DNA of 29,657 bases from the IMG/VR virus record IMGVR_UViG_3300021976_000059. One strand, written 5' to 3'. The stretch is from a virus (lineage: Duplodnaviria; Caudoviricetes). Below are positions 1,757 through 29,414 of the stretch, one piece after another (position 1 is the first letter of the stretch; each line of letters begins with the position of its first letter). Under the pieces are notes generated by a model. It was not told the origin of the DNA. It was given only the letters and a program-made list of their open reading frames with translations, and did no database searches. The position numbers and the translations under genes are program-made.

Positions 1757-2473
1757 CTATCTGGGCGCAGCCAGGGCTGCGAGGTCTCCCGCCGCCTTCT
1801 CGCAGTGGCGTTCGTCGATCTCCATACCGATCGCCTGGCGTCCCTCGGCCTGGGCCGCGAGCAGGGTGGACCCACGACCAGCGAACGGGTCGAGGACGGT
1901 CTCGCCGAGCATCGACGACGACTCGATGAGCTGCCGCAGGAGCACTACCGGCTTGGGCGTCGCATGCGGGCTGTGACGGTCCTCCAGCTGCCCGGCGTTC
2001 GCCCGTGGCACACGCACGATGCTGCCGCGCCGCAACCGGGCTGCGAGACGCCCATCGCCTGCCGCTCGGCCCGACGGCCGGGACACATAGACCCCGAAAG
2101 TGATCGGCTCCCAGCTCGGGCCCCAGGGCAGCGAGAGATCGCCCATGCCCAACATGGCCTTGTCCCAGACGAGCTCGGCGGTGGTGCCGATCGGCAGGCC
2201 GGACAGGTCAGGTCGACCGAAGACGTACAGGTGCCGGTGGCTGCGGAGCAGCCGGAGGCTCGCCGCCAACCCGGCCTCGACGAGCTCGTCGGCCTTGTCG
2301 CCGTCGCCGTTGATCCGCGCCAGCTTGTTGGTGCGGTGGTTGCTCTGCCAGTTCACGCCGTAGGGCGGGTCGGTGACGATGAGGTCGACCGAGTCGCGAG
2401 GAAGGCTCGGGAGCACCTCGCGGCAATCACCGTGGTAGAGCGTGATCTGGCCGTCGTCGTAGTACGGGGTCAT
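1757..2473 (-). CDS. DNA methyltransferase, N6-A/N4-C, beta class
   Basis: LYHGDCREVL, DLIVTDPPYG (motif IV), HATPKPV and VLDPFAGRGST (motif I). ATGA overlap with the recombinase. Confidence 0.95.
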   Translation of the reverse strand: MTPYYDDGQITLYHGDCREVLPSLPRDSVDLIVTDPPYGVNWQSNHRTNKLARINGDGDKADELVEAGLAASLRLLRSHRHLYVFGRPDLSGLPIGTTAELVWDKAMLGMGDLSLPWGPSWEPITFGVYVSRPSGRAAGDGRLAARLRRGSIVRVPRANAGQLEDRHSPHATPKPVVLLRQLIESSSMLGETVLDPFAGRGSTLLAAQAEGRQAIGMEIDERHCEKAAGDLAALAAPR

Positions 2474-3252
2474 GCCGCGGCGTGCGCCCGCTCGAGGGCA
2501 CCGTTTCGACGTGGCCGGGCCCCAGCGGCCGCCTGGTCGACGTCGAGGACCTGACGGAGGACCTCGAGGACCTGGCCGAGGCCTTCGACGGCCTGGCGCA
2601 GGGCGACGTCCCGGCTGCCGGCGCCGACGGTGTCTGGCTCGTTCCAGCTGCGCTGGCGCATGTGGTCGAGCAGCACGGTCGGGCGCAGGTCGTGGATGTA
2701 GCGGTCGGTGGTGGCGAGCGACTTGTGGCCGAGCTGGTCCTTGATCTCGTACACCGATGCTCCGGAGTCGGCCATGTCCGAGGCCAGCGAGTGGCGCAGG
2801 CCGTGCGGGTGGATCCGCTTCGTCAACCCCGCCCGGGCGCCAATCCGGGCCAGCGCGGCCCGCACGTAGCGGGGCTGCAGCGGCCGGCCGTGCTGACCGG
2901 CCGAGTAGGTGGCGAACACGCGGTGGTGGGCGCCGAGGCCGAGGGCCTGGCGCGTGGCCATCCACAGGTCGATCAGGGCGCAGCTGTAGGCGTCGATGCC
3001 GACCGTGCGGGCCCGGCGGCCCTTGCCCTCCCGGACACGCACCGTCTGGGCGACGGTGTCGATGTCCCGGGGCTCGAGATCGAGGCACTCCTGCAGGCGC
3101 AGCCCGGCCCCGAACAGCACGGCGATCAGGGCCCGCATCCGGATCCCGGTCAGGCTCCGGCGCGACGCCGCGGCGAGCAGCTGCAGCACCTCGTCGCGCG
3201 TCAGCGGCTCGGCCGGGAACTTCCGGCCCTTGTTCGTCGGCGGCCTGGTCAT
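2470..3252 (-). CDS. Tyrosine recombinase, catalytic domain only
   Basis: GLRLQE (R), GKG (K), HGLRH (HxxR), LGH and TDRY (Y). Strong SD GGAGG before ATG 3252. No N-terminal core-binding or arm-binding domain. Confidence 0.93.
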   Translation of the reverse strand: MTRPPTNKGRKFPAEPLTRDEVLQLLAAASRRSLTGIRMRALIAVLFGAGLRLQECLDLEPRDIDTVAQTVRVREGKGRRARTVGIDAYSCALIDLWMATRQALGLGAHHRVFATYSAGQHGRPLQPRYVRAALARIGARAGLTKRIHPHGLRHSLASDMADSGASVYEIKDQLGHKSLATTDRYIHDLRPTVLLDHMRQRSWNEPDTVGAGSRDVALRQAVEGLGQVLEVLRQVLDVDQAAAGARPRRNGALERAHAAA

Positions 3253-3400
3253 GGCGCCTCCCCTCCCCCAGCGGGGGCTGATGGCGACCGGCCCCCAAAC
3301 GCGCAACAGCCGCCCGAGCGGTCATGTCTCGGACGGCTGAAGCATCGACGTACGTGTCGAACCTGCCGGCACCGTAACACGCCACCTGCGTTTGTCCAGC
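3253..3400 (-). promoter_or_regulatory. Putative promoter and dyad-rich leader of the recombinase
   Basis: Minus strand TGGACA-N16-TACGGT. TCGAC-N6-GTCGA dyad. 12-bp inverted arms at 3307-3318 and 3328-3339. Confidence 0.45.
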
Positions 3401-10023: not shown

Positions 10024-10850
10024 CGCCGGCGTTCGAGGACGTGCCGCCGGCGTCGCTGTGGCCGGGGTTCAGCGTCGACAACCAGGGCATGTGGTGGCAG
10101 CTGCGCTGCATCAACTGCACCAAGGCGACGTCGCTGGCATCCATGAACGAGCCGTTGATCGACCAGCTGGTGCGCGAGCACCAGTGCGGGCCCCCACTGA
10201 GCACCCACTGGCGGGAAGGCGTGAGCCTCGGCGCCGCCCGCGCACGGGCGTTGACCTCGTACGCCATGGACGTCGAGCAGATGGCCAACGGGCTCGGCGC
10301 GGAACCCGACGTTCGAGCCGCGCTCGACCGGTTGGGCGCGGCGGTCGAGTCGCATCGCCAGGCTGCTGACGACATCGTCGAGCGCTACGACCGGTACGCC
10401 CGGCAGTCGCTGGGCGTCGGCATGAGCGACGACCGCATGCCGACGATCTGCCCCAGCTGCAGCGAGGCGATCCCAGCGGCCGAGTACATGGAGCACCGCC
10501 GCCGCTGCCAGGCCGACGTCGTGGCCGACAACCAGCGCCTCAGTCTCGGCGCCGAGCCGCTCGACGCCCGCCGGACGGTCAGCGACCCCGAGAACATCGT
10601 CGAGATCTCGGTCGCGGAGGTGTGCCGCCTGGGGGCGTTGGGCTTGCCCCGTCAACCGGTCACCGGCGCTCTGCCGGTCGGTGTCGTGTGGGCGCCCGGA
10701 GCGATGTGCCTGAGCCACCTCGTCGACCAGCGCAGAGACGGCCGGCTCGTTGAGCAGCTCGGCCTCGACGAGGTGGGCGTGGTGGTCTACGCCTGGACCG
10801 ACATCGCCGCGTGTGGCGAGTGTCCCGCCGGGCCCGAGGCGAGGCCATGA
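10020..10850 (+). CDS. Multi-zinc-finger hypothetical protein
   Basis: CINC...HQC, CPSC...HRRRC and C..H...CGEC. GTGA overlap. Confidence 0.75.
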   Translation: MTPAFEDVPPASLWPGFSVDNQGMWWQLRCINCTKATSLASMNEPLIDQLVREHQCGPPLSTHWREGVSLGAARARALTSYAMDVEQMANGLGAEPDVRAALDRLGAAVESHRQAADDIVERYDRYARQSLGVGMSDDRMPTICPSCSEAIPAAEYMEHRRRCQADVVADNQRLSLGAEPLDARRTVSDPENIVEISVAEVCRLGALGLPRQPVTGALPVGVVWAPGAMCLSHLVDQRRDGRLVEQLGLDEVGVVVYAWTDIAACGECPAGPEARP

Positions 10851-11542
10851 GCGTCTCCGATATGGAGCTGGTCAGCCGGGTGCGCGACGGCCACGAAGCG
10901 GCGTTCAGCGAGTTGTTCGTGCGACACAAGGCCGTGGCCCGGCGGATCGCGTTGACCTACTGGTGCCCGGGCGACCCCGACGATCTGGTCAACGAGGCCT
11001 TCGAGAAGGTGCTGGCCGCGACCCGCCGCGGCGCGGGCCCGACCGAAGCGTTCCGCGCCTACCTGCTGGCGACGCTGCGGCGGCTGGCCGCCGACCACGC
11101 CGAGGCGCCCCGGGATGAGCCCCTCGACGACATCCCCCCTGGGGCGGCGGCCGCTCCCCCACTGCCCGACGTCGGCGACCGTGACCTGATCACCCGGGCG
11201 TTCGAGTCGCTGCCCGACCGCTGGCAGGCCGTGCTCTGGTACACGGCCGTCGAGGGCCGCAACCCCCGCGAGCTGGCCCCGCTGCTGGGCGTGTCGCCCA
11301 ACGCCGTGGCCGCTCTCGCCTACCGGGCCCGGGAGCACCTGCGCCGGGCGTTCCTCCAGGCGCACCTCCAGACCTGGGCCCGGCCGCAGTGCGAGCCCCA
11401 CCGGTCGCTCCTCGGCGCCTACGTGCGCGACGGGCAGAGCCGCCGGGTGCGGGCCGCGACACAGCGTCACCTCGACGACTGCGCGGTCTGCCGTGGCCTC
11501 GTGGCCGAGCTGACCGACATCGACTCGATGCTCGTCGGATGA
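10847..11542 (+). CDS. ECF sigma-70 factor fused to a zinc-binding anti-sigma (zf-HC2) domain
   Basis: Region 2 (AFSELFVRH...DDLVNEAFEKV...FRAYL), region 4 (AFESLPDRWQAVLW...ELAPLLGVSPNAV..LAYRAR) and C...HLDDCAVC. Confidence 0.92.
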   Translation: MSVSDMELVSRVRDGHEAAFSELFVRHKAVARRIALTYWCPGDPDDLVNEAFEKVLAATRRGAGPTEAFRAYLLATLRRLAADHAEAPRDEPLDDIPPGAAAAPPLPDVGDRDLITRAFESLPDRWQAVLWYTAVEGRNPRELAPLLGVSPNAVAALAYRAREHLRRAFLQAHLQTWARPQCEPHRSLLGAYVRDGQSRRVRAATQRHLDDCAVCRGLVAELTDIDSMLVG

Positions 11543-12897: not shown

Positions 12898-13014
12898 GGT
12901 TGGCCAGTCTGAGCGTCGTGCCGGCAGCCGACCACGGAGCGGGCGCAGCGTGGGCTCCGCGTTGGCTCCGCATCGTGGCCCCTGACCTGCACGAATCGCC
13001 CTAAGGTGGGTGTC
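12898..13014. promoter_or_regulatory. Divergent promoter/operator region
   Basis: TAAGGT 7 nt before GTG 13015. Tandem GGCTCCGC repeats and an inverted CGGAGC. Confidence 0.5.
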
Positions 13015-14259
13015 GTGGCACGGCGAAGCCGTCTGGCGGCGGCTCGGAAGGCGGCGGGGTTGACCCAGGAGCAGCTCGCCGAGGCGCTCAAGGTCGACCG
13101 CACCACGCCTGGCCGCTGGGAGCAGGGCGTGTCGCCACCGCAGGCGTGGCAGCGCCCGGCACTCGCACGGGCGCTGAACGTGTCGCTGGCCGAGCTCGAC
13201 GACCTGCTGGTCGAGGACCTGCCGGAGGTCGGCTCGGACTGGACGACGGTGACCCCGCCGGCGCTCGACGACATCGAGGCGATCGAGCTGATCCGCCGCG
13301 CCGAGATCTCCGACGTCGGCGCCTCGACCATGGCCGCGGTAGAGACCGGCGCCGATCTGCTCTGCAGGTCGTACACGTCGACGCCACCAGCGGAGCTGCT
13401 GGTGCCGCTGCGGGCGTACCGGGCCTACACCGTCGGGCTGCTCGAGGGGCGCGCCACCCTCGGGCAGCGACGTCAGCTCACCGTCACCGCCGGGTGGTTG
13501 TCGCTGCTCACCGCGATCTGCCACATCGATCTACACCAGTACCGGGCCGCCGCCTTGAACCTCGAGGCCGCCCGCACCATGGCGGTCGAGACCGACGAGC
13601 CGCAGCTCGTCGCCTGGGTGCTCGAGACGCAGGCATGGCAGACACTCACCGACGGCCACTACCGCGATGCCCTGGAGTACTGCCAGGCCGGCCGCGAGCT
13701 CGTGACCGCCGGGACATCAGCGCATGTGCAGCTCGCCGTGCAGGAGGCCCGGGCCTCCGCGCGGCTCGAGCTCGTGACCGACACCCACCGGCTGCTCGAG
13801 GCGGCCGCCGCGTCGCTCGACCGGATGGGACAGCCGGAGCACCCCGAGCACCACTTCCAGTTCGACCCCCGCAAGCTCGTCGGCTACACCGCCACCACCC
13901 TCGCCTGGCTCGGCGACGACCACGCCGCCGCCGAGGCCGCCGCCCGCCTCGCGGTCGACCAGTACGACGTCGACGCCATCGACGGCCGGTGGGCGCGGCG
14001 CCTCGCGCTCGCCCGCATCGACCTCGCCCTGGTGCTCGCCGGCGCCGACCAGCCCGACGAAGCCGTCCACCTCACCGGCCTCGCCCTCGACTCCGGGCGC
14101 ATGGTCACCTCCAACCTGTGGCGGCTCACCGAGCTCGACCACCGGCTGACCGGCCGCTACGGCCGCACAGCGGACGTCGTCGACATCCACGACCGCTACA
14201 TCGACCTCCACCGCCAGCTCGTCGGCACCCCTCCCCGAGGGGCGCTCGGCCCCGCCTGA
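13015..14259 (+). CDS. XRE-family HTH regulator with long helical (TPR-like) C-terminal domain
   Basis: LAAARKAAGLTQEQLAEALKVDRTTPGRWEQG followed by Ala/Leu-rich helical repeats typical of actinobacterial mobile-element regulators. Confidence 0.9.
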   Translation: MARRSRLAAARKAAGLTQEQLAEALKVDRTTPGRWEQGVSPPQAWQRPALARALNVSLAELDDLLVEDLPEVGSDWTTVTPPALDDIEAIELIRRAEISDVGASTMAAVETGADLLCRSYTSTPPAELLVPLRAYRAYTVGLLEGRATLGQRRQLTVTAGWLSLLTAICHIDLHQYRAAALNLEAARTMAVETDEPQLVAWVLETQAWQTLTDGHYRDALEYCQAGRELVTAGTSAHVQLAVQEARASARLELVTDTHRLLEAAAASLDRMGQPEHPEHHFQFDPRKLVGYTATTLAWLGDDHAAAEAAARLAVDQYDVDAIDGRWARRLALARIDLALVLAGADQPDEAVHLTGLALDSGRMVTSNLWRLTELDHRLTGRYGRTADVVDIHDRYIDLHRQLVGTPPRGALGPA

Positions 14260-15322: not shown

Positions 15323-16231
15323 TCAGCCCGTAGCGCCGGCGGCAGCGGCGCCGAACACGGCGGTGAGCACCTGACGGAACCGGTCCTCGACGTCGTCGGT
15401 GGTGGCGAGGTCCGTGACCCCGGGGATGGCGGCGATCAGCGCGGCGGTGAGTCCGGGGGCCAACGCGGTGGCGATCATGGCCTCGTCGACGTCGACACGG
15501 GGGACGACGGGGAGGGGGATCAGCGACGCGAGGGCGTCGTGGGTCGCGGTGTCGATCGTCTCGCCGACGATGTCGAGGGCACGGATGGCGCCGCGCTGGG
15601 CGGCGTTGAGGCGCTTGGGGTCTCCGGCACCGAAGAGCAGGGCGGGTCGGCCGGCGCAGTCGAGCAGTCGTACATCGGGCATCTCAGGTGGCTCCTCTTC
15701 GATGAGTGCAGGGGTGGGTGCTGGGCCGCTGACGATCTCGTGGCGGAGGTCGGCCAGGCGGGCGTAGAGGTAGCGGCCGGGGCAATCGGTCGAGGCGCCG
15801 GGGGCGTCGAGGTGGCCGCCGCAGGTCGGCTTCCACCAGCCGCGATCGCGGCCGTGGCGGGCCAGGTCCACCGTCGCCCGCCACGCGGCAGCGGTGACCG
15901 GCCGGTTCTCGAAGTTGCCGAGCAGGCAGAGGGCGTGGGCGCGGGTGTTGTCGCCGGCTGTCGCCCCGCCGGCGATCCCGGCGCCGCGGCCCTCGTAGAT
16001 GGTGCCGTCGTCGTCGACGAGGAAGTTGTAGGCGATGTCCTTCCAGCGCTTGGTCACCTGGTGGTAGCGCTGGATGTCGCGGAGCGCCCGGGCGCCGTGC
16101 TGCTCGGTGCCGGTGTGGTGGATCCACAGCCGGGGCGTGGGCAGCGACGGCATCGGGAAGAACGCCGAGGTGGGCGCCCGGGCGGCCCACTCGGCGCGGC
16201 TGACGTAGGGGTGGCCGGCGAGGGTTCCCAT
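15323..16231 (-). CDS. Endolysin, N-acetylmuramoyl-L-alanine amidase (Amidase_2/PGRP-like)
   Basis: SRAEWAA, IHHTG, IQRYHQ...WKDIAYNFLVD..G.IYEGRG, GHLD and TDCPG. Confidence 0.93.
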   Translation of the reverse strand: MGTLAGHPYVSRAEWAARAPTSAFFPMPSLPTPRLWIHHTGTEQHGARALRDIQRYHQVTKRWKDIAYNFLVDDDGTIYEGRGAGIAGGATAGDNTRAHALCLLGNFENRPVTAAAWRATVDLARHGRDRGWWKPTCGGHLDAPGASTDCPGRYLYARLADLRHEIVSGPAPTPALIEEEPPEMPDVRLLDCAGRPALLFGAGDPKRLNAAQRGAIRALDIVGETIDTATHDALASLIPLPVVPRVDVDEAMIATALAPGLTAALIAAIPGVTDLATTDDVEDRFRQVLTAVFGAAAAGATG

Positions 16232-16283: not shown

Positions 16284-18791
16284 CTACGTAGCCAGGGACA
16301 GTTCCCAGGTGACCCGCCACTGCTTGCCGGCGTTGTCGGGCTTGTGGGCGATGGACTCGATGACGAAGTCGGCCTCGACGCCCATGCCGGTGGTGCCGGT
16401 GGCGATCAGGTGGATCTTGTCGCCGACGCGGCGGCGGATCGCCTGGGCCCGGTGGGCGGCGGAGAGGGTCGCGGGGAACGACAGCGTGAAGATGGGGCGG
16501 TCATCGGCGTAGCGGCCGAGGATGGTGCCGGCGTAGTCGGCGGCGTCGCCCTCGGTGGCGAAGAGGTTGGGGACTGCGCTGGGTGAGCGCACGGCCCGCT
16601 GTCCCTGCTGGGAGTCGAGGTCGTCGACGGTGATGAACCGGCCGGCGGGCTGCCCGGGGACCGCCCCAAGACCGGTGGCCTTCGCCAGCTCGCCGTCGTA
16701 GCCGCGCACGGCGATGACCACCGACTCGTTGATGGTGAACCCGGTGAGGGCCGTGAGCGGCCCGGGGTCCTCGGACTCGGTGCAGTCGATCTTGTGGCAC
16801 GCTGTCCAGCCGACCTCGTACTGGTTGGCGCCCGTGGAGACGAATGACCCGCGCGACTCGGTGTAGCCGTGGGGCGCCACGAACGGGTCGGCGAAGGTAC
16901 CGCTGCCGGCCACCGAACCGATCCCGGTAGCGAACAGCATGAACAGTGTCGACTGCCGACCCCACCCGTGGGCGACGCCGGCGGGGTCGAGGCCGGCGGT
17001 GACGGTCCCCACCGACAGACCGCTGGGCGAGCCGTACCAGCCACGGATCCGCCAGAGGGTGGCGACCCACAGCCCGGCGATGGTGCCGAGGTCGTCGAAG
17101 AACTTGGGGGTCGTGGCCGACTCGGTGCCGTCGCAGATGAGCGTGTAGATCCGCATGCCGACGGTGGACTTGAGGTTGCGGTGTTCGGTCCAGAACCGGG
17201 GCACGAACCAGTCGTTGCTGACGCCGCCGATGCCCTTGCTGCTGGCGACGACGAGCACCAGGAGGTCGCGGGCGATGACCGTGGGCAGGAGGATGTCGAC
17301 GTCGGCGCTGCCGAAGTGGGTGCCCGAGGCTGCCACCACGATGCCGCTGGGCGCGGAGGGGGCGACGCCGGCGGTGACCCGGTTGATGATCGCCCGGCGC
17401 TGGTCGTACGGGGTCAGGTCCGAGTACTCGAGCCCGGGGCCGGGGCCGTCGCAGAACGTGACCGCTGCGGTCGTGCTGGTGCTGTCCAAGGTGAGGCCGC
17501 CGTCACGGTTGAAGTAGCCGATGGGGCCCTCGTTGGTCTCGTGCAGGAACCCGATCTCGACCTCCTCGAACAGGCGGGCCAGCGCCAGGGCCTTGCCGTC
17601 CTCGATGCCGACCGGGCCGGTCAGGATGACGCCCTCGTTGATCGGCCCGGGCGGGTGCAGGAGGGCGGCCTTCGCCAGGACATCACCGACGAGCAGCCCG
17701 GTAGCTGCGCCCTCGAGGGGGAGCCGTGGGGCGGCGACGTCGGCCAGGGCGGCGCGGGCGAGCCAGCCTTCACCGGCGATCGACGCTGTCTTGCGGCCGG
17801 CGACAGGGGCGGCGGGGCGGACGTCGGAGATGTCGCCGGTCCACAACACGCCCTCGATCGGCTGGGACACGTCCTCGAACACCCACACGTCGACGAACGA
17901 CGGGGGCTCGGCCTCGGCCGCCTCCCAGATTGCGACCAGACCGGCCCCGTTGCCGCCTACGGCGTCGACGAGCGTGTCGGTGATGACGGGCGCCCCCCCG
18001 ACGTAGGCGGTCGCCTGGTCGCCCTGGACCCGGAGGCCGACGACCATGCCGTCCCAGGGTGTGAGGGGGTGGAAGTCGAGCACCGACGCGACGCCGGCGA
18101 CGACCTCGACGAGCTCGACCATGCCGGCGAGGGTGACCCGCACCATCACGAGCTCGTTGGTGCTGGAGTACCGGGCGACGACACCCGCACCGGTGTCGGG
18201 TCCGATGGGTCCGAGGGTGGCCTGCACGTAGTGGTCGTCGGTGAACCCCACCGCGAGGGCGAACTGCGGGAACGTGGCGCCGTCGTCGGTGGGCCGAGCC
18301 CGACCGCCCGACACGGTCCAGGCGTCGGCCCCGGCCCCGGTGTTCTCCGTGATCCACGCTTGGCCGGTCTCGGCGATCGTCAGCACGCCGTCGGTACCGA
18401 AGCGGTCGCGCAGCAGCAGCGCGGGGTCGACGTCGGTGGCCTCGGTGGTGCGGAGCCGGATCTTGCGGCCGGTGCGCAGCGAGTTGGCGCCCTGGTTCAG
18501 CGGCGAGTCGGCGTTGAAGAAGTTGAACCGGTCGTCGTCGTTGCGGAGCAGGGCCTTGAGGGCGCCGGGGCCGGCGAGCCCGGTGACGCTGGAGGGGAAG
18601 TCGCGGCCCGTCTTGGTCTCGGCGTCGTAGAGGAGGCTGGTGACATCCTCGTCGGGCTGGTCGAAGTCGCCGTCGTTGTCGAAGTCGCACTCGAGGACGA
18701 GGTCGGCGTCGACCTGGCCGCCGCCGGGCGTGAACGTGACGACGGCGGTGCCGCCGAGGGTGACGCCGCCGGTGGTGGGGGCGACCGCCAT
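16284..18791 (-). CDS. Large minor tail / baseplate-hub-like protein (835 aa)
   Basis: DFDNDGDF..EDVT, GR...G...LRNDDDRF, LWTGDI, EVEIGFLHE...G.I.YFNR, IINRVT and GDKIHL...FVIESIAH. ATG 18791 follows the previous stop by 2 nt. Confidence 0.85.
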   Translation of the reverse strand: MAVAPTTGGVTLGGTAVVTFTPGGGQVDADLVLECDFDNDGDFDQPDEDVTSLLYDAETKTGRDFPSSVTGLAGPGALKALLRNDDDRFNFFNADSPLNQGANSLRTGRKIRLRTTEATDVDPALLLRDRFGTDGVLTIAETGQAWITENTGAGADAWTVSGGRARPTDDGATFPQFALAVGFTDDHYVQATLGPIGPDTGAGVVARYSSTNELVMVRVTLAGMVELVEVVAGVASVLDFHPLTPWDGMVVGLRVQGDQATAYVGGAPVITDTLVDAVGGNGAGLVAIWEAAEAEPPSFVDVWVFEDVSQPIEGVLWTGDISDVRPAAPVAGRKTASIAGEGWLARAALADVAAPRLPLEGAATGLLVGDVLAKAALLHPPGPINEGVILTGPVGIEDGKALALARLFEEVEIGFLHETNEGPIGYFNRDGGLTLDSTSTTAAVTFCDGPGPGLEYSDLTPYDQRRAIINRVTAGVAPSAPSGIVVAASGTHFGSADVDILLPTVIARDLLVLVVASSKGIGGVSNDWFVPRFWTEHRNLKSTVGMRIYTLICDGTESATTPKFFDDLGTIAGLWVATLWRIRGWYGSPSGLSVGTVTAGLDPAGVAHGWGRQSTLFMLFATGIGSVAGSGTFADPFVAPHGYTESRGSFVSTGANQYEVGWTACHKIDCTESEDPGPLTALTGFTINESVVIAVRGYDGELAKATGLGAVPGQPAGRFITVDDLDSQQGQRAVRSPSAVPNLFATEGDAADYAGTILGRYADDRPIFTLSFPATLSAAHRAQAIRRRVGDKIHLIATGTTGMGVEADFVIESIAHKPDNAGKQWRVTWELSLAT

Positions 18792-18793
18792 GG

Positions 18794-19852
18794 CTAGAAG
18801 TACTCGGTGATGATGACGACGCCGGGGGCGCCGACCGTGGACACACGCGCAGCGGTCGAGGCGCCGGAGAGGGCACCGGAGGAGCCGCCCCCGTAGTTCT
18901 TGCCGGCGGTGCCGTTGCCGGCGCCGATCGTCTTCGCTGCGCCGGACAGCATCGAGTCGGCGCCCTGACCGGACCGTGCGGCGAGCCCGTCGTTGACGAT
19001 GCCGGTGCCGCCTGCGGAGCCGGGGATGTTCAGGTCTCCGCTCGCCCCGGCGCCGCCTGCGCCGCCAGCGGCCGCGGCGTTGGCGCCTACGGCCACGCCG
19101 CCCATTTGTGTGCCGCCTGCACCACCAGTGGCAGAGCAGTGCGACCCGAACGACGTCGTGCCCCCCGTCGCGCCCGCGGCGCCCGCAGCCGCGGCGACGG
19201 CACCGGCGCCGATCGTGACCGCCACGGTGGCGGCGAGGTTGTCGGCCTGGATCATCTTGCGGGAGTAGCCGCCGGCGCCGCCGCCGGCGCCCTCGGCCTG
19301 TTGGCCCGCAGCGGTCGCGCCGGTGCCGCCACCGGAGCCGCCGCCGCCAACCAGCTCGACGAGGATCGCCTTGAGCCCGACCGGCTTGGTCCAGGTCCCC
19401 GAGCTGGTGAAGATGTCCATGTCGACGCGGTTCCTTCCTGTGTCGTCGTCGAGGGTGAGCCGCGGCGTGACCGTGACGGCATCCGAGGAGACCTCGACGG
19501 GGATCGGTGCGTCGAAGTGCTCGAACCACTGGAGCGCCCCGTCGGAGTTGCGGGTCAGGTAGTAGCCGTAGACCTGCTGCACGACCCCGGTCGTCGAGCG
19601 GGTGAACGTGACGGGTGAGCGCACCGCTTCGGACGGGTCCCCGGCGGTGGTGGTCCACGCTGTCGTCATCGACACGGCGGCGTAGCCGGCGAACGTGGCC
19701 TCGGTGAACGCGGCTTGGGTGAGGGCCTCGATCTGGGTGGCGGTGAGCCCGGAGGTGACGTTGTTGACGTACAGACGCAACGTCATGTCGATGTTGGTGA
19801 TCAGGTCGAGGAACGCTTCCTCGCCCTGGTTGACGACTGTGACGCTGCTCAT
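18794..19852 (-). CDS. Minor tail protein with C-terminal glycine-rich domain
   Basis: LRLYVNN...FTEATFAGYAA N-domain, then FTSSGTWTKP...VELVGGGGSGG...GVVIITEYF. Confidence 0.88.
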   Translation of the reverse strand: MSSVTVVNQGEEAFLDLITNIDMTLRLYVNNVTSGLTATQIEALTQAAFTEATFAGYAAVSMTTAWTTTAGDPSEAVRSPVTFTRSTTGVVQQVYGYYLTRNSDGALQWFEHFDAPIPVEVSSDAVTVTPRLTLDDDTGRNRVDMDIFTSSGTWTKPVGLKAILVELVGGGGSGGGTGATAAGQQAEGAGGGAGGYSRKMIQADNLAATVAVTIGAGAVAAAAGAAGATGGTTSFGSHCSATGGAGGTQMGGVAVGANAAAAGGAGGAGASGDLNIPGSAGGTGIVNDGLAARSGQGADSMLSGAAKTIGAGNGTAGKNYGGGSSGALSGASTAARVSTVGAPGVVIITEYF

Positions 19853-22242: not shown

Positions 22243-23337
22243 CTAGGGGGAGCCGGGGCCGGCGATGTCGAGGGTGAGGGTGGCGGCGACGTACTCGACG
22301 CCGGCCATGGAGACGATGTCGAACTCGGCGCTCTGCACCCTGACGGTGTCGAACGCGGTGTCCTGCTCCCAGTACAGGTGCTTGAGCGGGTAGCGGACGG
22401 CGGAGAGCGGGTCGGTGTCGATGCCCAGGTGGGCGGCGGCGATGCCGGCCTGGCCCTCGCCGATCGGCGTGGGGATCGCCTCGGCGTCGCCGGCGTCGGT
22501 CTCGAGGTCGATCTCGCGGGCGAGCACCGGGTCGTCCCATTCCGGCACTGGGTCGTTAATGCCCCGTTGCCGGACGTTGACGACCGTGTCCCGCAGCCGG
22601 GCCTCGACGGTGTAGGGGAAGGCGAGCCCGAACGGGGCCGGGAACCCGGCCGCCTGGCGGTTGGCGAAGCCGCTGAGCCCGTCGAGGCTGGCCTGCCACA
22701 CACCGATCAGCAGCGTCGGTAGACCGAAGACGATGTTGTTCCAGATGACGACCGCGCGCTGCATCGTGTCGCGCTGGTAGCGGAGCACCAGGGCGTGCTG
22801 GGGAAGGATGAACACCCCGTCGCCGCGGTCACCGAAGAACGGCGGGTCGAACGTCGCCTCGGCATGGAAGTCGGCTGCCGTCAGGTCCTCGTGGACGTAG
22901 ACGTCGCGCAGGTTCGAGAAGCCTTCGGTGGTGCCGGCGCTCAGCGTCGCCTGCAGATAGGGCCCGGCGACCACCTCGAGCGTGGACACGTTGGTGCCGT
23001 CCGCGGAGAACGTGTGCTTGACCAGCTTGTCGACGTCGGGCCCGACCCGGCTCGTCGCCTCGATCGCCGCCTTGAGCGACTGCGGACCGGAGCCGTCCAT
23101 GTAGGCGGCGAGCTGGTCCCTGGACTTGCGGTCCGAGACCTTGCCGACCATGACCACCACGGGCAGCGTGAGGCGGTCCATGCCTCGGCCGTAGGTCTCG
23201 TCGAAGGTGTAGGCCTCGGGGTAGGTGACCACCGCGGCGGGCACCTGCACCTGGTCGGGTGGGAAGGCGGAGACGCGCAGCCCGGGGATCGTGTCGATGC
23301 GGGCGGCGACGTCGTCCATGACGTCGGCGAGGTTCAT
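22243..23337 (-). CDS. Tail terminator-like protein with ~230-aa inserted domain
   Basis: MNLADVMDDVAARIDTIPGLRV...PAAVV...DGSGPQSLKAAIEA [insert] TAFDTVRV..AEFD...YVAATLTLDIAG. ATGA overlap. Confidence 0.8.
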   Translation of the reverse strand: MNLADVMDDVAARIDTIPGLRVSAFPPDQVQVPAAVVTYPEAYTFDETYGRGMDRLTLPVVVMVGKVSDRKSRDQLAAYMDGSGPQSLKAAIEATSRVGPDVDKLVKHTFSADGTNVSTLEVVAGPYLQATLSAGTTEGFSNLRDVYVHEDLTAADFHAEATFDPPFFGDRGDGVFILPQHALVLRYQRDTMQRAVVIWNNIVFGLPTLLIGVWQASLDGLSGFANRQAAGFPAPFGLAFPYTVEARLRDTVVNVRQRGINDPVPEWDDPVLAREIDLETDAGDAEAIPTPIGEGQAGIAAAHLGIDTDPLSAVRYPLKHLYWEQDTAFDTVRVQSAEFDIVSMAGVEYVAATLTLDIAGPGSP

Positions 23338-23930
23338 CCGACGCCCCGTGGCCGCTTGTAGTCGCTGAGCATCACGGCGACGTCGGGGTCGACCTTGGCG
23401 AGCAGCCGCATCTCCGAGCCCTGGTCGGGTGAGCCGGCGACACCGAACGGTGCGTTGCGGCGGGTGAAGAACCGCGACGACTGGAGCTTGGTGGCGGTCA
23501 CCACCGTGGCCGGAAAGGCCGTCCAACCCCAGGGGATCGTCACGCCGATCTCGTGACGGGCCCCGCAGGGCGTGAGCTCGGACTCCGCGGTCCACGCCAG
23601 GCGGGTCCAGGGCCGGCCCTTGGCCGGGGCGTTGACGGGCTCCTTGGTGAAGGTCGCCAGGACGTCGCCGGCGACGGTGACGACGAGACCCGTGGCGGTC
23701 TGGAAGTCGTCGACGTCGACCACCCAGTAGCCCCGCTCGAGGTCGGGGCGGGCGGTGTACAGACGCTCCTCCGCGGCGGCCACCTTGCCGAACTGCCGGT
23801 TGGTCGCGTGGTCGATCGCCCTCGACGCGGCCGTGATGGCAGCAGCCAGCTCGAGGTCGTCGACGTCGTCGTCGATGCGGAGGTAGGCGGCCAGCTCCTC
23901 GACCGTCAGGTAGTCCGGTGCCCAGGCCAC
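23334..23930 (-). CDS. Head-to-tail adaptor
   Basis: YLTVEELAAYLRI...AASRAIDHATNRQF...WGWTAFP..V..AT...RR.APFG...DPDV..ML..Y. Confidence 0.9.
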   Translation of the reverse strand: MAWAPDYLTVEELAAYLRIDDDVDDLELAAAITAASRAIDHATNRQFGKVAAAEERLYTARPDLERGYWVVDVDDFQTATGLVVTVAGDVLATFTKEPVNAPAKGRPWTRLAWTAESELTPCGARHEIGVTIPWGWTAFPATVVTATKLQSSRFFTRRNAPFGVAGSPDQGSEMRLLAKVDPDVAVMLSDYKRPRGVG

Positions 23931-23932
23931 CG

Positions 23933-24235
23933 CTACTGCTCCTGGGCGGCCTTGTAGCGGGCGACGACGTCGTCCGGGACGGTGCCCCGTGAGGGCACGT
24001 CGATGCCCTCACCGCGGGCCCAGGCGCGCACCGTCTTGGCGGACGGCTCCGGGGCCGCTGCGGGCCCGGGCTCGGGCTCGAGGTCGTAGTCAACGGCCAG
24101 CGGCCGCCACAGGTCCGGGTTGTCCCGGACGATGGGATGGTCGGCGTGCGCCGTGGTACGCCCTCGACGGACCCGGTGAGGGGTCCCGTCGAGAACGACC
24201 ATGGCGCTGTGCCGAGCGATGCGCAGGTCCGACAT
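23933..24235 (-). CDS. Head-module protein with C-terminal Lsr2-like DNA-binding domain
   Basis: VRAWARGEGIDVPSRGTVPDDVVARYKAA. N-domain ...HPIVRDNPDLW. Starts 2 nt after the capsid stop. Confidence 0.85.
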   Translation of the reverse strand: MSDLRIARHSAMVVLDGTPHRVRRGRTTAHADHPIVRDNPDLWRPLAVDYDLEPEPGPAAAPEPSAKTVRAWARGEGIDVPSRGTVPDDVVARYKAAQEQ

Positions 24236-24237
24236 GG

Positions 24238-27200
24238 TCAGGTGACCGAGTCGTAGGTGACCTGGCGGACACCGCCGATGTCGGTGTTCGCGAACGCCTT
24301 GTAGCCCCAGATGGCGAGGTCGACGTGCGCGACGGGCTTGTACTCGACGCCGGCGGCGGCGCCACCCGATCCGGGGAACTCGAGGCGCTGCGGCGCCGAC
24401 GCCCAACCCCAAACAGTCGCCGGGTCGAACAGCCACGAGTTGTTCAACGCCCCAGGCGTCGAGGGCAGTGCCCACGACGGGGTCCCGACCACGCCGGCGA
24501 GGTCGAGCTGAGTGAACCGGCGGGAGGCGCTGCCGCTGGCGTTCTGCGGGTTGATCTGCGGGACCAGCTTGCGGCCGTCGTTGTCCGAGGCCGCCACGAA
24601 CGTCAGGTACAGCACCTGCTCGACGGCGAACATCGTGAAGTCGTAGCCCCGCACGAATTGCAGCCCGGCGACGGCGGCGTCCCACGCGGCGATCAAGACC
24701 TCGTCGACCGCAGTCGCGCCCACGCCCAGGGTGATGTCGACCGCGGCGGTGAGGGTGTTGAGGAACGTGGCCGCCGCCGACTCGAGGCCTTCGTTCCAGC
24801 CTCGGACCATCTGGTTGAAGATGAGCGTGGACACGGCGGGGTTGCCGCCCATGTCCCACACCTCTCGGGTGATCGACGCCTTCCCGCTGGTCGGCGTGGG
24901 GGTGACGGTCTGCGACGTGGTGATGAACTCGCCGCCGGTGGGCTCGACGCCCTCGGTGTGGTCACCCACCAGCCCGGTCGCCGACAGGAACTTCGGGAAC
25001 ATGAACGGCTGGACACCGTTGGGGGGGCCGCCCCGGTTGATCGACTCCCAGATCGGATACCGGAAGTCGCGTTGGTCGACGTACATGTCGGGCCGGTTGA
25101 TCGTGGGGTTGAGCTCGTTGACGTCGCCGGTGGTGGTGTCGGCGAAGGTGCGCTGGTCGGCGAACACGGCGGCCAGGAACTTCATCACCCGCTTCCCGGC
25201 GTCGGTCTCCTGGCCGCTGTGGTCGCGGGCGAGGGCCATCTCGTGGAGGTCGTTGGAGAAGTCGTGGTCCGACCGGGTGAGGACCCCGGGCCGGCTGAAC
25301 CGGTAGGGCAGGGCCTCGTGGACGAACAGCACCGGGCCACGGGTGGGGTTGACCGGCTCGGGCCCCTCGGGCTCGGGCGTCGGGGCCGCCGGCGCGGGGA
25401 GACCCAGCATCGTGGCGAACTGGCCCGACTGGATCATGTCGTCGACCTGCTGGGTGGTCAGGGTGAGGCCACCGGCCGGGGCGGCCGGGGCCTGCGGGTT
25501 GCCCTGCTGGGCCAGCGCCGCGGTGAGCTGGTCCATGACACCGGGGCGGGTCAGCACCGCGGTCAACTGCTCCTGGGTGAGCGTGAGACCGGTGGGCTCG
25601 GGAGCCGCGGGCGGCTCGGTGGTGGTAGCGGTGCAGGCGACGCCCTCGGCGTGGACCTGACCGCAGGCGTTGCACGGCAGCATGGTGTTGTCTCCTGTTC
25701 GGCTCGCGGCCACGGACGTGACGCGGGCATCGTCGAAAGCGGGCATTGCGGTGAGGGCGACTTCGCGCAGGTCGGCGCGGCGCACCAACGTCACGGCCCG
25801 GTCCTTCGGGTCCGGGGCCGTGTCGGCGGCCATGTCGAAGTCGACGCCGACCGACAGGCCGTCGAGGACGCCGTCCTCGGCGAGCAGCAGCGCCTCGTCG
25901 CCGGCGTCGCCGCGGGCGATCTTGAACTTCACGCGGAGCCCAGCTGGCGAGTCGGTGAGCTTGACGGCACGCCCGATCGCCGGGCCGTGCTCGCGGGTCA
26001 GCTTCACCCGGCCGACCTCGGACCACGACAGGGCGCCCTTCGCGAACCGGAACTTCTGGCCGTACTTGGCGCCGATCTTGCCGTAGGGCAGGGCGAGGCC
26101 CTCGATCGTGCGGCCGGCGAGGTCGACAGAGAACTCGGTGACCGGGACGTCGGTGAAGGTGAGCCCGCGGTCGGTGTCGAACGTCATCGCCGCTGGTTGG
26201 GTTGCGGTCACTGTGTCGTCCTCCTCGGCGGGCGTGTCGCCCTGGCCGGCGTCGGGATCGGGGTCGGTGACGGGGTCGGGCGGCGGGGCTGGTTCCTCGA
26301 TCTCGGGCATCGGCGGCTTGCGCTCAGCCGTGCGGATCTCGTCGACCGTGATCGCCTCGAGGGCCTTCGCCGTGGCGTACGTGGCCCACCGCTCCGTGGG
26401 GTTGGGCTGCAGGTACTCGGTCGTGTTGAAGGCGACCGTGTAGCCGCGGCGGGTCACGTCGCCCATGCTCAGGCGTCCCGTGATCCCCTGCATGTAGGGG
26501 GCGAGGACCTCGTTGAGCTTGTTGCGGCGGCGGTCGACGTCGTTGGCGTAGGTGCGGCTGGTGGTGGAGATCCCGAGGTCTTCGGGGTCGATGCCCAGCG
26601 CGTTGGCGATGTCGAGGTTGACCTGCCGCTGCAGCTCGACGAGCTGCAGGTCACGGGGGGCCGGCGAGTCCACGCTGTGGTAGGTCATCGCCTTCGGCAC
26701 CCACGCTGTCGCCCGCCGCTTACGAGACCACTTCCACTTCGCCAGGATCTCCTGGATCTCGTCGTCGTCTATCTCGTCGGCACCGTCGGCGGGCGCGAAG
26801 TAGTCGGCCGGCCGGGGGTCATCCGCGTACATGACCGCGGCCTTGTCGAGCGCGATGGCTCGGCGGATCTCCCGGCCGGCGTGCTGTAGGACGGCCGGGT
26901 TCGGCGAGTCGAACCGGATGATCCGGTCGCCGCCGACCGCCTTCCCGTCGACCCACACGACGCCGCGACGCGGGTCGATCCCGGACGGGAGCGGCGCCGG
27001 CGACTTGCCGTCGCCCGGCGGCTCCAGGCTGACCGTGCCGACGTCGAGGTGCCGGGCCGACACCGGGAACCCGGCGAAGTCGCTGGACGTGACCAGCCAC
27101 CACCCGATGCCGTCGAACAGCAGGTCCTCGACCGTCTGCGCCAGCGTGACCACGTTTGGTACGTCGGGGTCGATCTGGCGCAGCAGCGCCGACTCGGCGA

Positions 27201-27408
27201 CCGTGAAGTCGGGCTGGTACTGCTCGAGGGGCATCGTCGCCACGCTGCACACGAGGTTCCGGCCACGGCGCACCGCGGGCACCGACAGGGCCTGTCGCCT
27301 GGTCACCGACGTGCCGGTGGCCGAGTACATCTCGGCGAACAGCTCGACGATGTTCCGCGGTGGGCTGTCGAACGTCGCTCTGCGCTTACGGGACCACGGC
27401 CACTTCAC
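24238..27408 (-). CDS. Fused portal - prohead protease - scaffold/major capsid protein (1056 aa)
   Basis: Portal (ALSVPAVRRGRNLVC, VEDLLFDG, IANALGI, DEIR..E), HK97-type protease (RTIEGLALPYG, EH, DGLSVG, LREVALT..PAF..ARV) and HK97-fold capsid (EG..P, ITREVWD, LAIWGY.A) with no intervening stop. SD AAGGAG before GTG 27408. Confidence 0.9.
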   Translation of the reverse strand: MKWPWSRKRRATFDSPPRNIVELFAEMYSATGTSVTRRQALSVPAVRRGRNLVCSVATMPLEQYQPDFTVAESALLRQIDPDVPNVVTLAQTVEDLLFDGIGWWLVTSSDFAGFPVSARHLDVGTVSLEPPGDGKSPAPLPSGIDPRRGVVWVDGKAVGGDRIIRFDSPNPAVLQHAGREIRRAIALDKAAVMYADDPRPADYFAPADGADEIDDDEIQEILAKWKWSRKRRATAWVPKAMTYHSVDSPAPRDLQLVELQRQVNLDIANALGIDPEDLGISTTSRTYANDVDRRRNKLNEVLAPYMQGITGRLSMGDVTRRGYTVAFNTTEYLQPNPTERWATYATAKALEAITVDEIRTAERKPPMPEIEEPAPPPDPVTDPDPDAGQGDTPAEEDDTVTATQPAAMTFDTDRGLTFTDVPVTEFSVDLAGRTIEGLALPYGKIGAKYGQKFRFAKGALSWSEVGRVKLTREHGPAIGRAVKLTDSPAGLRVKFKIARGDAGDEALLLAEDGVLDGLSVGVDFDMAADTAPDPKDRAVTLVRRADLREVALTAMPAFDDARVTSVAASRTGDNTMLPCNACGQVHAEGVACTATTTEPPAAPEPTGLTLTQEQLTAVLTRPGVMDQLTAALAQQGNPQAPAAPAGGLTLTTQQVDDMIQSGQFATMLGLPAPAAPTPEPEGPEPVNPTRGPVLFVHEALPYRFSRPGVLTRSDHDFSNDLHEMALARDHSGQETDAGKRVMKFLAAVFADQRTFADTTTGDVNELNPTINRPDMYVDQRDFRYPIWESINRGGPPNGVQPFMFPKFLSATGLVGDHTEGVEPTGGEFITTSQTVTPTPTSGKASITREVWDMGGNPAVSTLIFNQMVRGWNEGLESAAATFLNTLTAAVDITLGVGATAVDEVLIAAWDAAVAGLQFVRGYDFTMFAVEQVLYLTFVAASDNDGRKLVPQINPQNASGSASRRFTQLDLAGVVGTPSWALPSTPGALNNSWLFDPATVWGWASAPQRLEFPGSGGAAAGVEYKPVAHVDLAIWGYKAFANTDIGGVRQVTYDSVT
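25681..25696 (-). promoter_or_regulatory. Internal in-frame RBS and ATG for scaffold-capsid
   Basis: AGGAGA-N7-ATG(25683) lies exactly at the end of the protease domain. Confidence 0.7.
26209..26226 (-). promoter_or_regulatory. Internal in-frame RBS and GTG for protease-capsid
   Basis: GAGGAGG-N8-GTG(26211) lies exactly at the end of the acidic portal tail. Confidence 0.75.
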
Positions 27409-27517: not shown

Positions 27518-29020
27518 TCAGGTCCCGACCACCAGCCTCGGCTTGCCCACCGGGGCGGGCAGGGTGCGTGCCAGGTGCACCGCACCAGCGAGGGCGTAGG
27601 CGGCGTCGCAGTGGCCCTCGCCCTTGCGTGAGAACACCCACGCGTCGCCGCGTCTGAGGCGCTCGGCGCCGGTGACGTGGGCGTTCAGTAGAGGGTCGTC
27701 GGAGTGCACCACCAGGCCGGCGGTCACCTGCTCGTCGAGACCCATGCACACCGCCGCGACCTCGCCTCGGATCTCGTCGACGGTGCACCCGGCCGGCGGC
27801 CAGCCGGTGCGGCCCTTGCGCGCTGCGAGGTCAGCGGCCAGCGCCGCGGCGGGCCCGGACGGGAACCAGCCGAGCGCCCTCGGCTTCACGCGGGCCAGCA
27901 GCCGAGGGAGCTCCCGGCGCAGCTTGTCCGTGCAGCCGACGCCGTCCCACGCCTTCACGACCTCGCCCCGCACCCGGCCGTCATCGAGCTTCGCTGCGGC
28001 GGCCAGCGTGGCGTGCGTCTGGTCTGGGGCGACTTCCAAGCACACGGCCACTCGGCCCCGCACACCGGACAGGTCGCCATCCTCGTGGCCTCGATGCCAC
28101 GCCCCGGGGTCGATCGCCGGCGCGAGCTTCCGAACCCGAATGCACATGTTCTCCGTGCGGAACCCGGCGAGCTTGTCGCCCCCCTTGCGCACCGCGGCGG
28201 CAGCGTCGTTGAGGAGGGTCTCCGCGGCGATGCGCCTTCCGAGGTTGGGGTTCGCCTGGGCCAGGGCGTGGACATCCTCGGGGTCGGCGTCCTCCTCAGC
28301 CGACCACTCGAACAGCCCGAGCTGGGTGTCACCGACCCCCGTGGCGATGAACGCCAGGGCCTCGTCCCGGAGGTCGTTCAGCACGACCGACCCGTCGTCG
28401 CCCATGTTGGTCAGGGCCCACGCCTGGAAGGTCGCCACGGCGTTGCCGGCGTTGACCGAGGCGTCCCACGCCGAGTAGTCCCGGTGCTGGCGCAGCTCGT
28501 CGAGGATGAGCCGGTAGACGGTCAGTGACCGGCCGCCCTCGGCGTTGCTGGCAGCGATCTTGTACCGGGAGCCCTCGGTCGTCCAGCTCTCCTGCTCGCC
28601 GTTGGCCTCCCGCTTCCAGCGCCTGGGGCTGTGGGCACGTAGCCCGTCGAGGTCGGGGCTCGCCTCGGCCAGGGCCACGGCCTTGAGCCAGCTCTCCCGG
28701 GCGTAGTCGACCTTGGTGCTCGTGCCGAGGATCAGGGGGACGGCCTCGACGAACTGCCAGTACAGCGACAACACGACGGCTACGAGCGTCTTGCCGTTTT
28801 GGCGGCTGACGCAGACCAGCAGCTTCCGGAACCGGGGAAGCCCGGTGGGGAGCAGCTCGCAGCCGTGGATGACCAGCCACTGCTCCCACGGGTCGAGCGG
28901 GTGGCGCAGCACCGCGTCGGCGAACTCGATGACGTCGAACCCGTAGGACGTGGCGGGGGTCAGCTCGCGCAGTGGCGGCGTCCACAGCCGGGGTGTCGTG
29001 CTACCCAGTACCTGGGCCAC
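27518..29020 (-). CDS. terL: Terminase large subunit
   Basis: LDPWEQW, VSRQNGKT (Walker A), LILDELRQ (Walker B), QANPNLG and DAAYALAGA. Confidence 0.96.
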   Translation of the reverse strand: MAQVLGSTTPRLWTPPLRELTPATSYGFDVIEFADAVLRHPLDPWEQWLVIHGCELLPTGLPRFRKLLVCVSRQNGKTLVAVVLSLYWQFVEAVPLILGTSTKVDYARESWLKAVALAEASPDLDGLRAHSPRRWKREANGEQESWTTEGSRYKIAASNAEGGRSLTVYRLILDELRQHRDYSAWDASVNAGNAVATFQAWALTNMGDDGSVVLNDLRDEALAFIATGVGDTQLGLFEWSAEEDADPEDVHALAQANPNLGRRIAAETLLNDAAAAVRKGGDKLAGFRTENMCIRVRKLAPAIDPGAWHRGHEDGDLSGVRGRVAVCLEVAPDQTHATLAAAAKLDDGRVRGEVVKAWDGVGCTDKLRRELPRLLARVKPRALGWFPSGPAAALAADLAARKGRTGWPPAGCTVDEIRGEVAAVCMGLDEQVTAGLVVHSDDPLLNAHVTGAERLRRGDAWVFSRKGEGHCDAAYALAGAVHLARTLPAPVGKPRLVVGT

Positions 29021-29414
29021 GTCGAGCCCGCAGCTCGTCGAGCTTGCTCGGGCCGCTGACAACCTGGCCACCCTCCTTCGTGCCCCGTGCGGCCGGTGTC
29101 AGCCCCAGCGCCGTCAGGGTCGCCAGGTACTTCGGACCGAGATCCGACGCCACGGAGTGACGCCCGAGGGCGTCGGCGATCTTCCGCAGCGCCCGGTCCA
29201 CCTCGTCGTCAGGCTCATCGCAGCTGGCCACGGCGCGCGCCACCTTGAGCAGGTGCTCCTCGTACGCCGACCGCGGCGCTGACTCGTCGAGTAGCGCAGC
29301 GAGGCGCTTCGCCAGGGCGACCGTGGCGGCGTCGCGGTCGTCGACCGTCGCCGCCCGCAGCGCCTTCGCCAAGGCCCGAGCGATCGGCCCCGATCCTGCA
29401 CGATTCGTGCCCAT
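29001..29414 (-). CDS. terS: Terminase small subunit (actinophage type)
   Basis: DAATVALAKRLAALLD...LGPKYLATLTALGLTPAAR...LDELRARR. Overlaps the TerL start. Confidence 0.9.
   Translation of the reverse strand: MGTNRAGSGPIARALAKALRAATVDDRDAATVALAKRLAALLDESAPRSAYEEHLLKVARAVASCDEPDDEVDRALRKIADALGRHSVASDLGPKYLATLTALGLTPAARGTKEGGQVVSGPSKLDELRARRGPGTG

Follow-up and report, generated by a model that had tools for sequence, protein, structure and literature searches.

Portal, protease, scaffold and capsid in one phage gene, with a conserved candidate start inside it

How can one gene supply a portal ring of twelve subunits and a capsid shell of hundreds when no stop codon separates the two proteins? 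The question is raised by a stretch of viral DNA of 29,657 nucleotides (IMG/VR record IMGVR_UViG_3300021976_000059, Caudoviricetes; hereafter the window), a phage genome of soil origin that carries an integrase. A first-pass annotation, made from the letters alone, had noticed that portal, protease and capsid share one open reading frame (ORF; 24238..27408, minus strand), and translation bears this out: 1056 amino acids with no stop inside. Our answer, which we hold at about 70%, is that this head gene would be read mostly from a start inside it, at 25683, and less often from 27408, and that its own protease would cut the portal free after Phe410.

One gene, and a family like it

The gene belongs to the HK97-type head module, with an HK97-family portal, an S78 protease whose His and Ser are in place and a capsid recognized by profile. 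The portal family PF04860 matches residues 55-362 with 76 bits against a cutoff of 39, and the solved portal 3kdr matches at an expectation value (E) of 2e-15. PF04586, the S78 protease, matches 434-567 above its cutoff; His474 and Ser519, which we take to be the catalytic residues, are kept in 156/159 and 159/159 homologues, respectively. The capsid part has no Pfam match itself. It matches phrog_2263 (E 2e-32) and has an Atlas score of 0.97 among HK97-family capsids, while homologous capsid domains match PF25209 in 33 of 100 cases and PF05065 in 6 of 100. A sequence search of the PDB returned no solved relative of this domain. AlphaFold leaves residues 376-424 and 563-607 disordered, and its full-length model, with a predicted template modeling score of 0.35, says nothing about how the domains are arranged.

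Could the fusion be a stop codon lost through sequencing error, or the remains of a dead prophage? The first-pass annotation had raised the lost stop itself. Contigs of X1 and X2, which stem from one sample and possibly the source itself, match the window across the portal/protease junction at every position, as does a 197-nucleotide contig from another study (X3; 26071-26267). Portal, protease and capsid occur together in 119/119 listed homologues besides the window's own protein, from a search that gave 831 matches among 8000 candidate proteins. At the level of loci, a set of 286, not dereplicated and with the window included, holds 215 that are fully fused, 30 with a separate portal and 5 broken between protease and capsid, the rest being cut off or different; 211 of the 215 were usable and clustered at 90% into the 159 non-redundant homologues counted throughout. 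The portal is fused to the protease in 171/199 non-redundant loci and separate in 28/199, and 33/43 loci from genome collections are fully fused. These shares are not the true family ratio, because the scans favor close relatives; 105 stand-alone portals turned up in a search aimed at them. Such split relatives are what a lost stop would predict. Against it stand identical junction contigs from two studies, more than 150 diverged fused homologues and intact catalytic residues, and we regard the explanation as ruled out. The fusion is real, and it is a conserved trait of the family.

On the portal tree, fusion state needs 13 parsimony changes against 27 with shuffled labels, so fusion or splitting occurred several times. 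Cultured strains, too, carry the family in prophage-like regions; the protease-side start discussed below is present in Kribbella jiaozuonensis (L055) and absent from Micromonospora mirobrigensis (L057). Among 50,697 records of isolated phages, none covers 80% of the window protein; the closest of them, small phages of Arthrobacter, Microbacterium and Gordonia, encode the portal separately. Our literature search, in sources seen in part and with subscription journals and supplements outside its coverage, found no portal-to-capsid fusion. The capsid gene is hidden from annotation because databases label such proteins 'portal' or 'prohead protease'. A programmed frameshift yielding a portal-only product was also considered and set aside; no in-frame XXX-WWW-N slippery heptamer, the only signal tested, occurs in the 171 linkers.

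Some relatives are built differently. In L067:1929-4805, L118, L271, L119:608-3844 and L181, all inside the fused clade, the portal runs into an extension of 550-650 amino acids and then a stop; an ADP-ribosyltransferase domain lies at the end of the extension (PF03496 in both loci that were scanned), and the protease-capsid gene is separate. Module exchange is seen in L018:3681-4997, L019:1590-2903 and L236:2815-4308, where related capsids follow another scaffold or another protease-like N-terminal part. Five split-portal loci (L214, L219, L225, L226 and L242) have an extra stretch before the protease, small and Cys/His-containing in L214, L219 and L225.

Two starts inside the frame

Two strong Shine-Dalgarno (SD) sequences with start codons lie in frame, as first noted, GAGGAGG-N8-GTG at 26211 (Val400; start 1) and AGGAGA-N7-ATG at 25683 (Met576; start 2), and would give products of 657 and 481 amino acids. 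The first-pass annotation had drawn from them three co-terminal products. From the window genome alone, neither start is convincing: with the amino acids (EEDDTV) fixed, 25% of synonymous resamplings reach the SD of start 1, and 7.5% of resamplings reach that of start 2.

It is conservation that makes start 2 convincing as a predicted start. A start with an SD at or below -6 kcal/mol, 2-14 codons past the protease, is present in 128 of 159 homologues, against 78.8+-4.7 expected from synonymous resampling (maximum 90), a conservative null, since the amino acids are held constant. The first Met or Val past the protease is ATG in 123 of the 159, GTG in 23 and GTA or GTC in 10, and is absent in 3; gene-wide, 46% of Val codons are GTG. 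The positions cluster at +5 to +7 codons. The SD of start 2 surpasses the best portal-start SD in 126/147 homologues (medians -8.3 and -3.4). Start 2 is also present in 27 of 28 split-portal forms and so predates the portal fusion. A conserved in-frame SD and start directly past the protease is a feature of nested protease/scaffold genes, and it is found here. In two loci (L216:1688-4853 and L222:169-3277) portal and protease are fused and the capsid lies in another frame, beginning at the start-2 position; this may be a natural split or an assembly error. Judging by these comparisons, we are confident that start 2 is used.

What if only the full-length polyprotein were made and cut up, with surplus portal and protease discarded? 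This would need no internal initiation. It would also waste about 60% of the translated mass, and it sits badly with a start that is kept at the codon level (ATG or GTG in 146/159) and is older than the portal fusion. We consider it highly improbable.

Start 1 fares differently. The first-pass annotation had expected both internal SDs to be conserved, and only the capsid-side one is. At an SD of -7 or below, start 1 is found in 62/171 fused genes against 31.4+-4.1 expected (at -8 or below, 40/159 against 22.7+-3.5); it is missing from 109 of the 171 and occurs in 1 of 34 members of one clade. Val400 as a family-wide start codon is ruled out, the aligned Val being GTG in 20 of 51 cases with 23.7 expected. 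As a rule of the family, three co-terminal products are very unlikely.

For the window phage itself the odds are better. Start 1 occurs at -7 or below in 7 of the 10 members of its subclade against 2.5+-1.2 expected, although the clades were picked after seeing the tree and tree members are not independent. Four members, one of them the window phage, have GGAGG-N8-GTGA at one and the same offset. Strong starts tend to fall 2-16 codons ahead of the Phe site described below (53/73 against 110/254), Val400 being 10 codons ahead of Phe410, and the start 1 site ranks in the least structured 6% of the in-frame windows; with the family-wide excess, these points favor a working protease start that would supply extra protease-capsid chains. 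Within the same subclade, the aligned Val is encoded by GTC in L098 and L178, and by GTG in L099 but with no SD ahead of it. Among 40 relatives at >=50% identity the excess is not significant (8/40 against 5.1+-1.7), and neither ATG (p 0.22) nor the NTGA relic of an overlap (p 0.32) is enriched. We think start 1 probably descends from an old stand-alone protease start that some lineages have retained and that the phages can do without. That it gives a third product in the window phage is close to an even bet; that all three products are made and needed there is possible, at somewhat under even odds.

Release of the portal, and a head from one gene

The first-pass annotation had supposed that the protease would later free the portal, and there is now a specific candidate site for this. 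Between the portal and the protease core, a Phe-[Asp/Ala/Ser] motif is present in 149 of 171 fused loci and 2 of 22 split ones, a comparison that leaves out six split loci with inserted domains; with a search interval one residue shorter the fused count is 145/171. In 12 non-overlapping fused/split pairs, the motif was confined to the fused member in 10 and to the split member in none, and both members had it in 2 (p=0.002). Among stand-alone portal tails it occurs in 2/105, after 15 of 120 proteins were dropped, and some of these tails may be truncated. Phe also stands 7-12 residues ahead of the L-x-P motif of the capsid in 127 of 131 scorable fused loci and 19 of 19 split ones. Phe410 is our predicted site for cutting the portal free. 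The Phe before the N-arm would match in position the K103/S104 site at which the HK97 capsid precursor is cut (PMC10275583; here and below, papers are cited from the accessible parts of their text).

The mechanism we propose would run as follows. Ribosomes would start mostly at 25683 and make scaffold-capsid precursor in hundreds of copies; rarer starts at 27408 would give full-length portal-protease-scaffold-capsid chains, twelve of which would form the portal ring. Start 1 would be an optional extra in the family. Since the portal crown, the protease, the scaffold and the N-arm of the capsid all point toward the inside of the head, the ring would carry its own protease together with twelve capsid domains from which the shell could be seeded at one vertex. 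Cuts by the protease would fall after Phe near the N-terminus of the portal, in the linker that joins portal to protease and ahead of the N-arm, perhaps also at V-A-A/S; those after Phe would free the portal and the mature capsid.

Several points weigh against this reading. The weak portal SD may reflect translational coupling or a start outside the scored interval. The first-pass annotation had initiation strength setting the stoichiometry, and although start 2 outdoes the portal start across the family, the ranks in the window do not match the copy numbers needed: start 1 comes first at -11.6 kcal/mol, ahead of the portal start at -7.5 and start 2 at -7.4, energies that rest on an assumed 9-nucleotide anti-SD sequence and thresholds of our own choosing. 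(The portal start is more structured, at -16.8 kcal/mol against -8.6 and -10.0 for the other starts, and begins with GTG.) The capsid domain is poorly modeled by AlphaFold, with low confidence per residue. Split tails are shorter than fused linkers, 28 against 39 amino acids, and so have a lower chance of holding a Phe. The Phe motif could instead serve in docking, or have arisen by duplication of the protease's N-terminal strand. We know of no Phe-specific S78 protease. And a competing motif, V-x-A-[S/A/T], lies 7-10 residues upstream of the Phe site in 51/159 loci and 70/119 proteins.

This last point leads to a different account of the cuts. If S78 proteases are akin to assemblin and presumably share its specificity, an Ala-directed enzyme would cut at V-x-A/S(T) (Val400-Thr-Ala/Thr) to free the portal and at V-A-A/S569 to free itself, with the Phe motifs being structural. 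The linker motif, in the form V-x-A-[SATN] found in 51/159 loci, shows no codon bias to GTG, the V-A-A-S after the protease is highly conserved and resembles the V-x-A/S sites of herpesviruses, and the protease fusion of Arthrobacter phage Arielagos has repeated L-T-A motifs. Yet the Ala motif is found in one third to 60% of linkers, against 87% for Phe, and it is Phe, not Ala, that marks the position ahead of the capsid N-arm. We think Ala specificity unlikely and keep cleavage after Phe410 as the preferred reading.

Why should this matter? In HK97, the placing of a 12-fold portal at one vertex and the nucleation of the shell by the portal are still hypotheses (PMC10275583). A natural covalent portal-protease-capsid chain makes the question of portal placement directly testable, and, if the proposal is true, one gene would yield a complete portal-containing head. 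The boldest version would have one gene with three nested starts build the whole head; the dodecamer, bringing twelve proteases and as many capsid subunits, would thereby nucleate exactly one portal vertex, release would come from a Phe-specific cut site that had evolved together with every fusion event, and the doubling of one scaffold helix would switch the shell from a capacity of ~17 kilobases (kb) to one of ~30 kb. Taken whole, we find it doubtful.

Scaffold, relatives and genomic setting

The two GLTLT..Q repeats of the first-pass annotation are present. So is its Cys motif, with three residues rather than two before the His; within the family this motif is optional. The interval between protease and capsid profile has a bimodal length, mostly 60-89 or 107-133 amino acids. 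The long, two-repeat scaffold is found in 20 of 22 proteins on contigs of 24-45 kb and 9 of 29 on contigs of 15-21 kb, with 69/120 proteins outside these bins and short contigs that may be fragments; on the capsid tree it is found in two or more clades (6 changes). Scaffold control of shell size is plausible because triangulation number scales with genome length (PMC8814770), and the doubled scaffold helix is a plausible candidate for a capsid-size determinant. Features of the gene are collected in Table 1.

Table 1. Coordinates of the head gene, its parts and its direct neighbors in the window; residue numbers refer to the 1056-residue product
Feature	Position	Strand	Basis
Single 1056-codon head gene, portal-linker-S78 protease-scaffold-HK97-type major capsid protein	24238..27408	-	Translation, profile matches, contigs, homologues
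Portal domain, residues 1-365; start GTG 27408, SD AAGGAG (-7.5 kcal/mol)	26314..27408	-	PF04860 E 3e-21; PDB 3kdr and 9lbn portals
Phe13-Asp14 near portal N-terminus, conserved; predicted trimming site	27367..27372	-	Phe at column in 134/159; cleavage inferred
Pro/acidic portal/protease linker, residues 366-424	26137..26313	-	Predicted local distance difference test (pLDDT) <50 over 376-424; aligns poorly
Internal start candidate 1, GAGGAGG-N8-GTG (Val400), would give 657-residue protease-scaffold-capsid product; lineage-restricted	26209..26226	-	SD/start comparison
Phe410-Asp411 (T-F-D), fusion-associated; predicted portal-release site	26176..26181	-	149/171 fused vs 2/22 split
S78/HK97-type prohead protease, residues 425-570, His474 and Ser519	25699..26136	-	PF04586; residue conservation
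V-A-A-S (566-569), protease C-terminus; candidate second cut site	25702..25713	-	V 156, A568 146, S569 122 of 159
Internal start 2, AGGAGA-N7-ATG (Met576), likely makes 481-residue scaffold-capsid precursor in bulk	25681..25696	-	SD/start conservation
C-x2-C-x3-H-x5-C motif (579-592), optional; possible metal site	25633..25674	-	73/159 homologues
Two GLTLT..Q repeats (607-614, 647-654), each into predicted helix (612-634, 652-667); long-scaffold type	25447..25590	-	Alignment, model
Phe749 / Phe755-Ala756 just before capsid N-arm; predicted maturation site	25141..25164	-	Phe conservation
Predicted mature major capsid protein, residues 756-1056, 301 residues, 32 kDa, HK97 family	24238..25143	-	phrog_2263 E 2e-32
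Terminase large subunit gene, directly upstream	27518-29071	-	PF23931, phrog_9 (both terminase genes)
Terminase small subunit gene, directly upstream	29001-29414	-	PF23931, phrog_9 (both terminase genes)
Lsr2-domain gene and head-tail adaptor, directly downstream	23334..24235	-	PF23359, phrog_442

Where does such a gene stand among known head systems? In lambda C/Nu3 and herpesvirus UL26/UL26.5, an in-frame start just past the protease gives a co-terminal, more abundant, protease-free product, as proposed here; the lambda nested genes were reportedly described by Shaw and Murialdo in 1980. Lambda C is an S49 protease. In both systems the nested product is scaffold only, whereas the frame in the window runs on through the capsid and has the portal fused in front. 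Gifsy-2 is said to have a tripartite capsid gene (Effantin, 2010) in which, as in the window, protease, scaffold and capsid form one chain that is processed by the protease, though without a portal.

Closest in gene order are the protease-scaffold-capsid fusions of small actinophages (Microbacterium EE; Arthrobacter AN, AX and FE; Gordonia CW and DM; Rhodococcus RRH1), which hold the three parts in one frame as the window does (PMC7302621, PMC5513430). Their portal and protease are related to those of the window at ~28% identity, but the portal has a gene of its own upstream, which in Arielagos overlaps the protease start by 4 nucleotides. Their genomes are ~14-18 kb, against ~29.5 kb with an integrase here; many relatives of the window gene lie on contigs of 15-20 kb. 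The accessible text of the two papers on these fusions (PMC7302621, PMC5513430) mentions no nested start. In Arielagos gp5 (L287:3317-4945), Met176 follows directly after VAASRKDLT and aligns with Met576, with an SD that falls short of -6, which makes this phage a cultured system for the nested start. Viewed by analogy, the window gene would work like lambda C/Nu3 superimposed on the small-actinophage fusion, and it departs from each on a tested feature.

The PAJU2 capsid polyprotein likewise has protease, scaffold and capsid in one chain that its protease processes, without the portal (PMC8306868). The HK97 head module (PMC10275583) shares the HK97-type portal, the S78 protease and a scaffold that forms the N-terminal part of the capsid precursor and is removed just before the N-arm; it differs in having three separate genes, a cut after Lys103 and a portal captured by non-covalent contacts with the scaffold. 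Actinophage portal-MuF fusions indicate that a portal C-terminus tolerates large interior-facing extensions (PMC7302621, PMC5513430). They pose no copy-number conflict because the extension is a minor protein, unlike in the window.

Beyond the head gene come the Lsr2-domain gene, the adaptor, the terminator, the major tail protein, the neck and a short tape measure. The gene for the Lsr2 DNA-binding domain (23933-24235, minus strand) sits right behind the capsid, within the head operon. The tail terminator ORF (22243-23338, minus) encodes ~364 amino acids, of which the first 116 alone match a PHROG family, leaving a long insertion or extension; an 837-amino-acid ORF of the tail region (16284-18797, minus) has no Pfam or PHROG match. 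Elsewhere lie an integrase (2470-3306, minus), a sigma factor of the extracytoplasmic function type with a weak zinc-finger match (10811-11542, plus), an XRE repressor (13006-14259, plus) and an amidase (15323-16231, minus). Positions 1-126 of the window recur from 29524 onward, so the assembly is circular at ~29.5 kb, although the record is classed as linear. An actinobacterial host is likely, since relatives of the gene lie in Micromonospora, Kribbella, Asanoa, Salinispora and Nocardioides.

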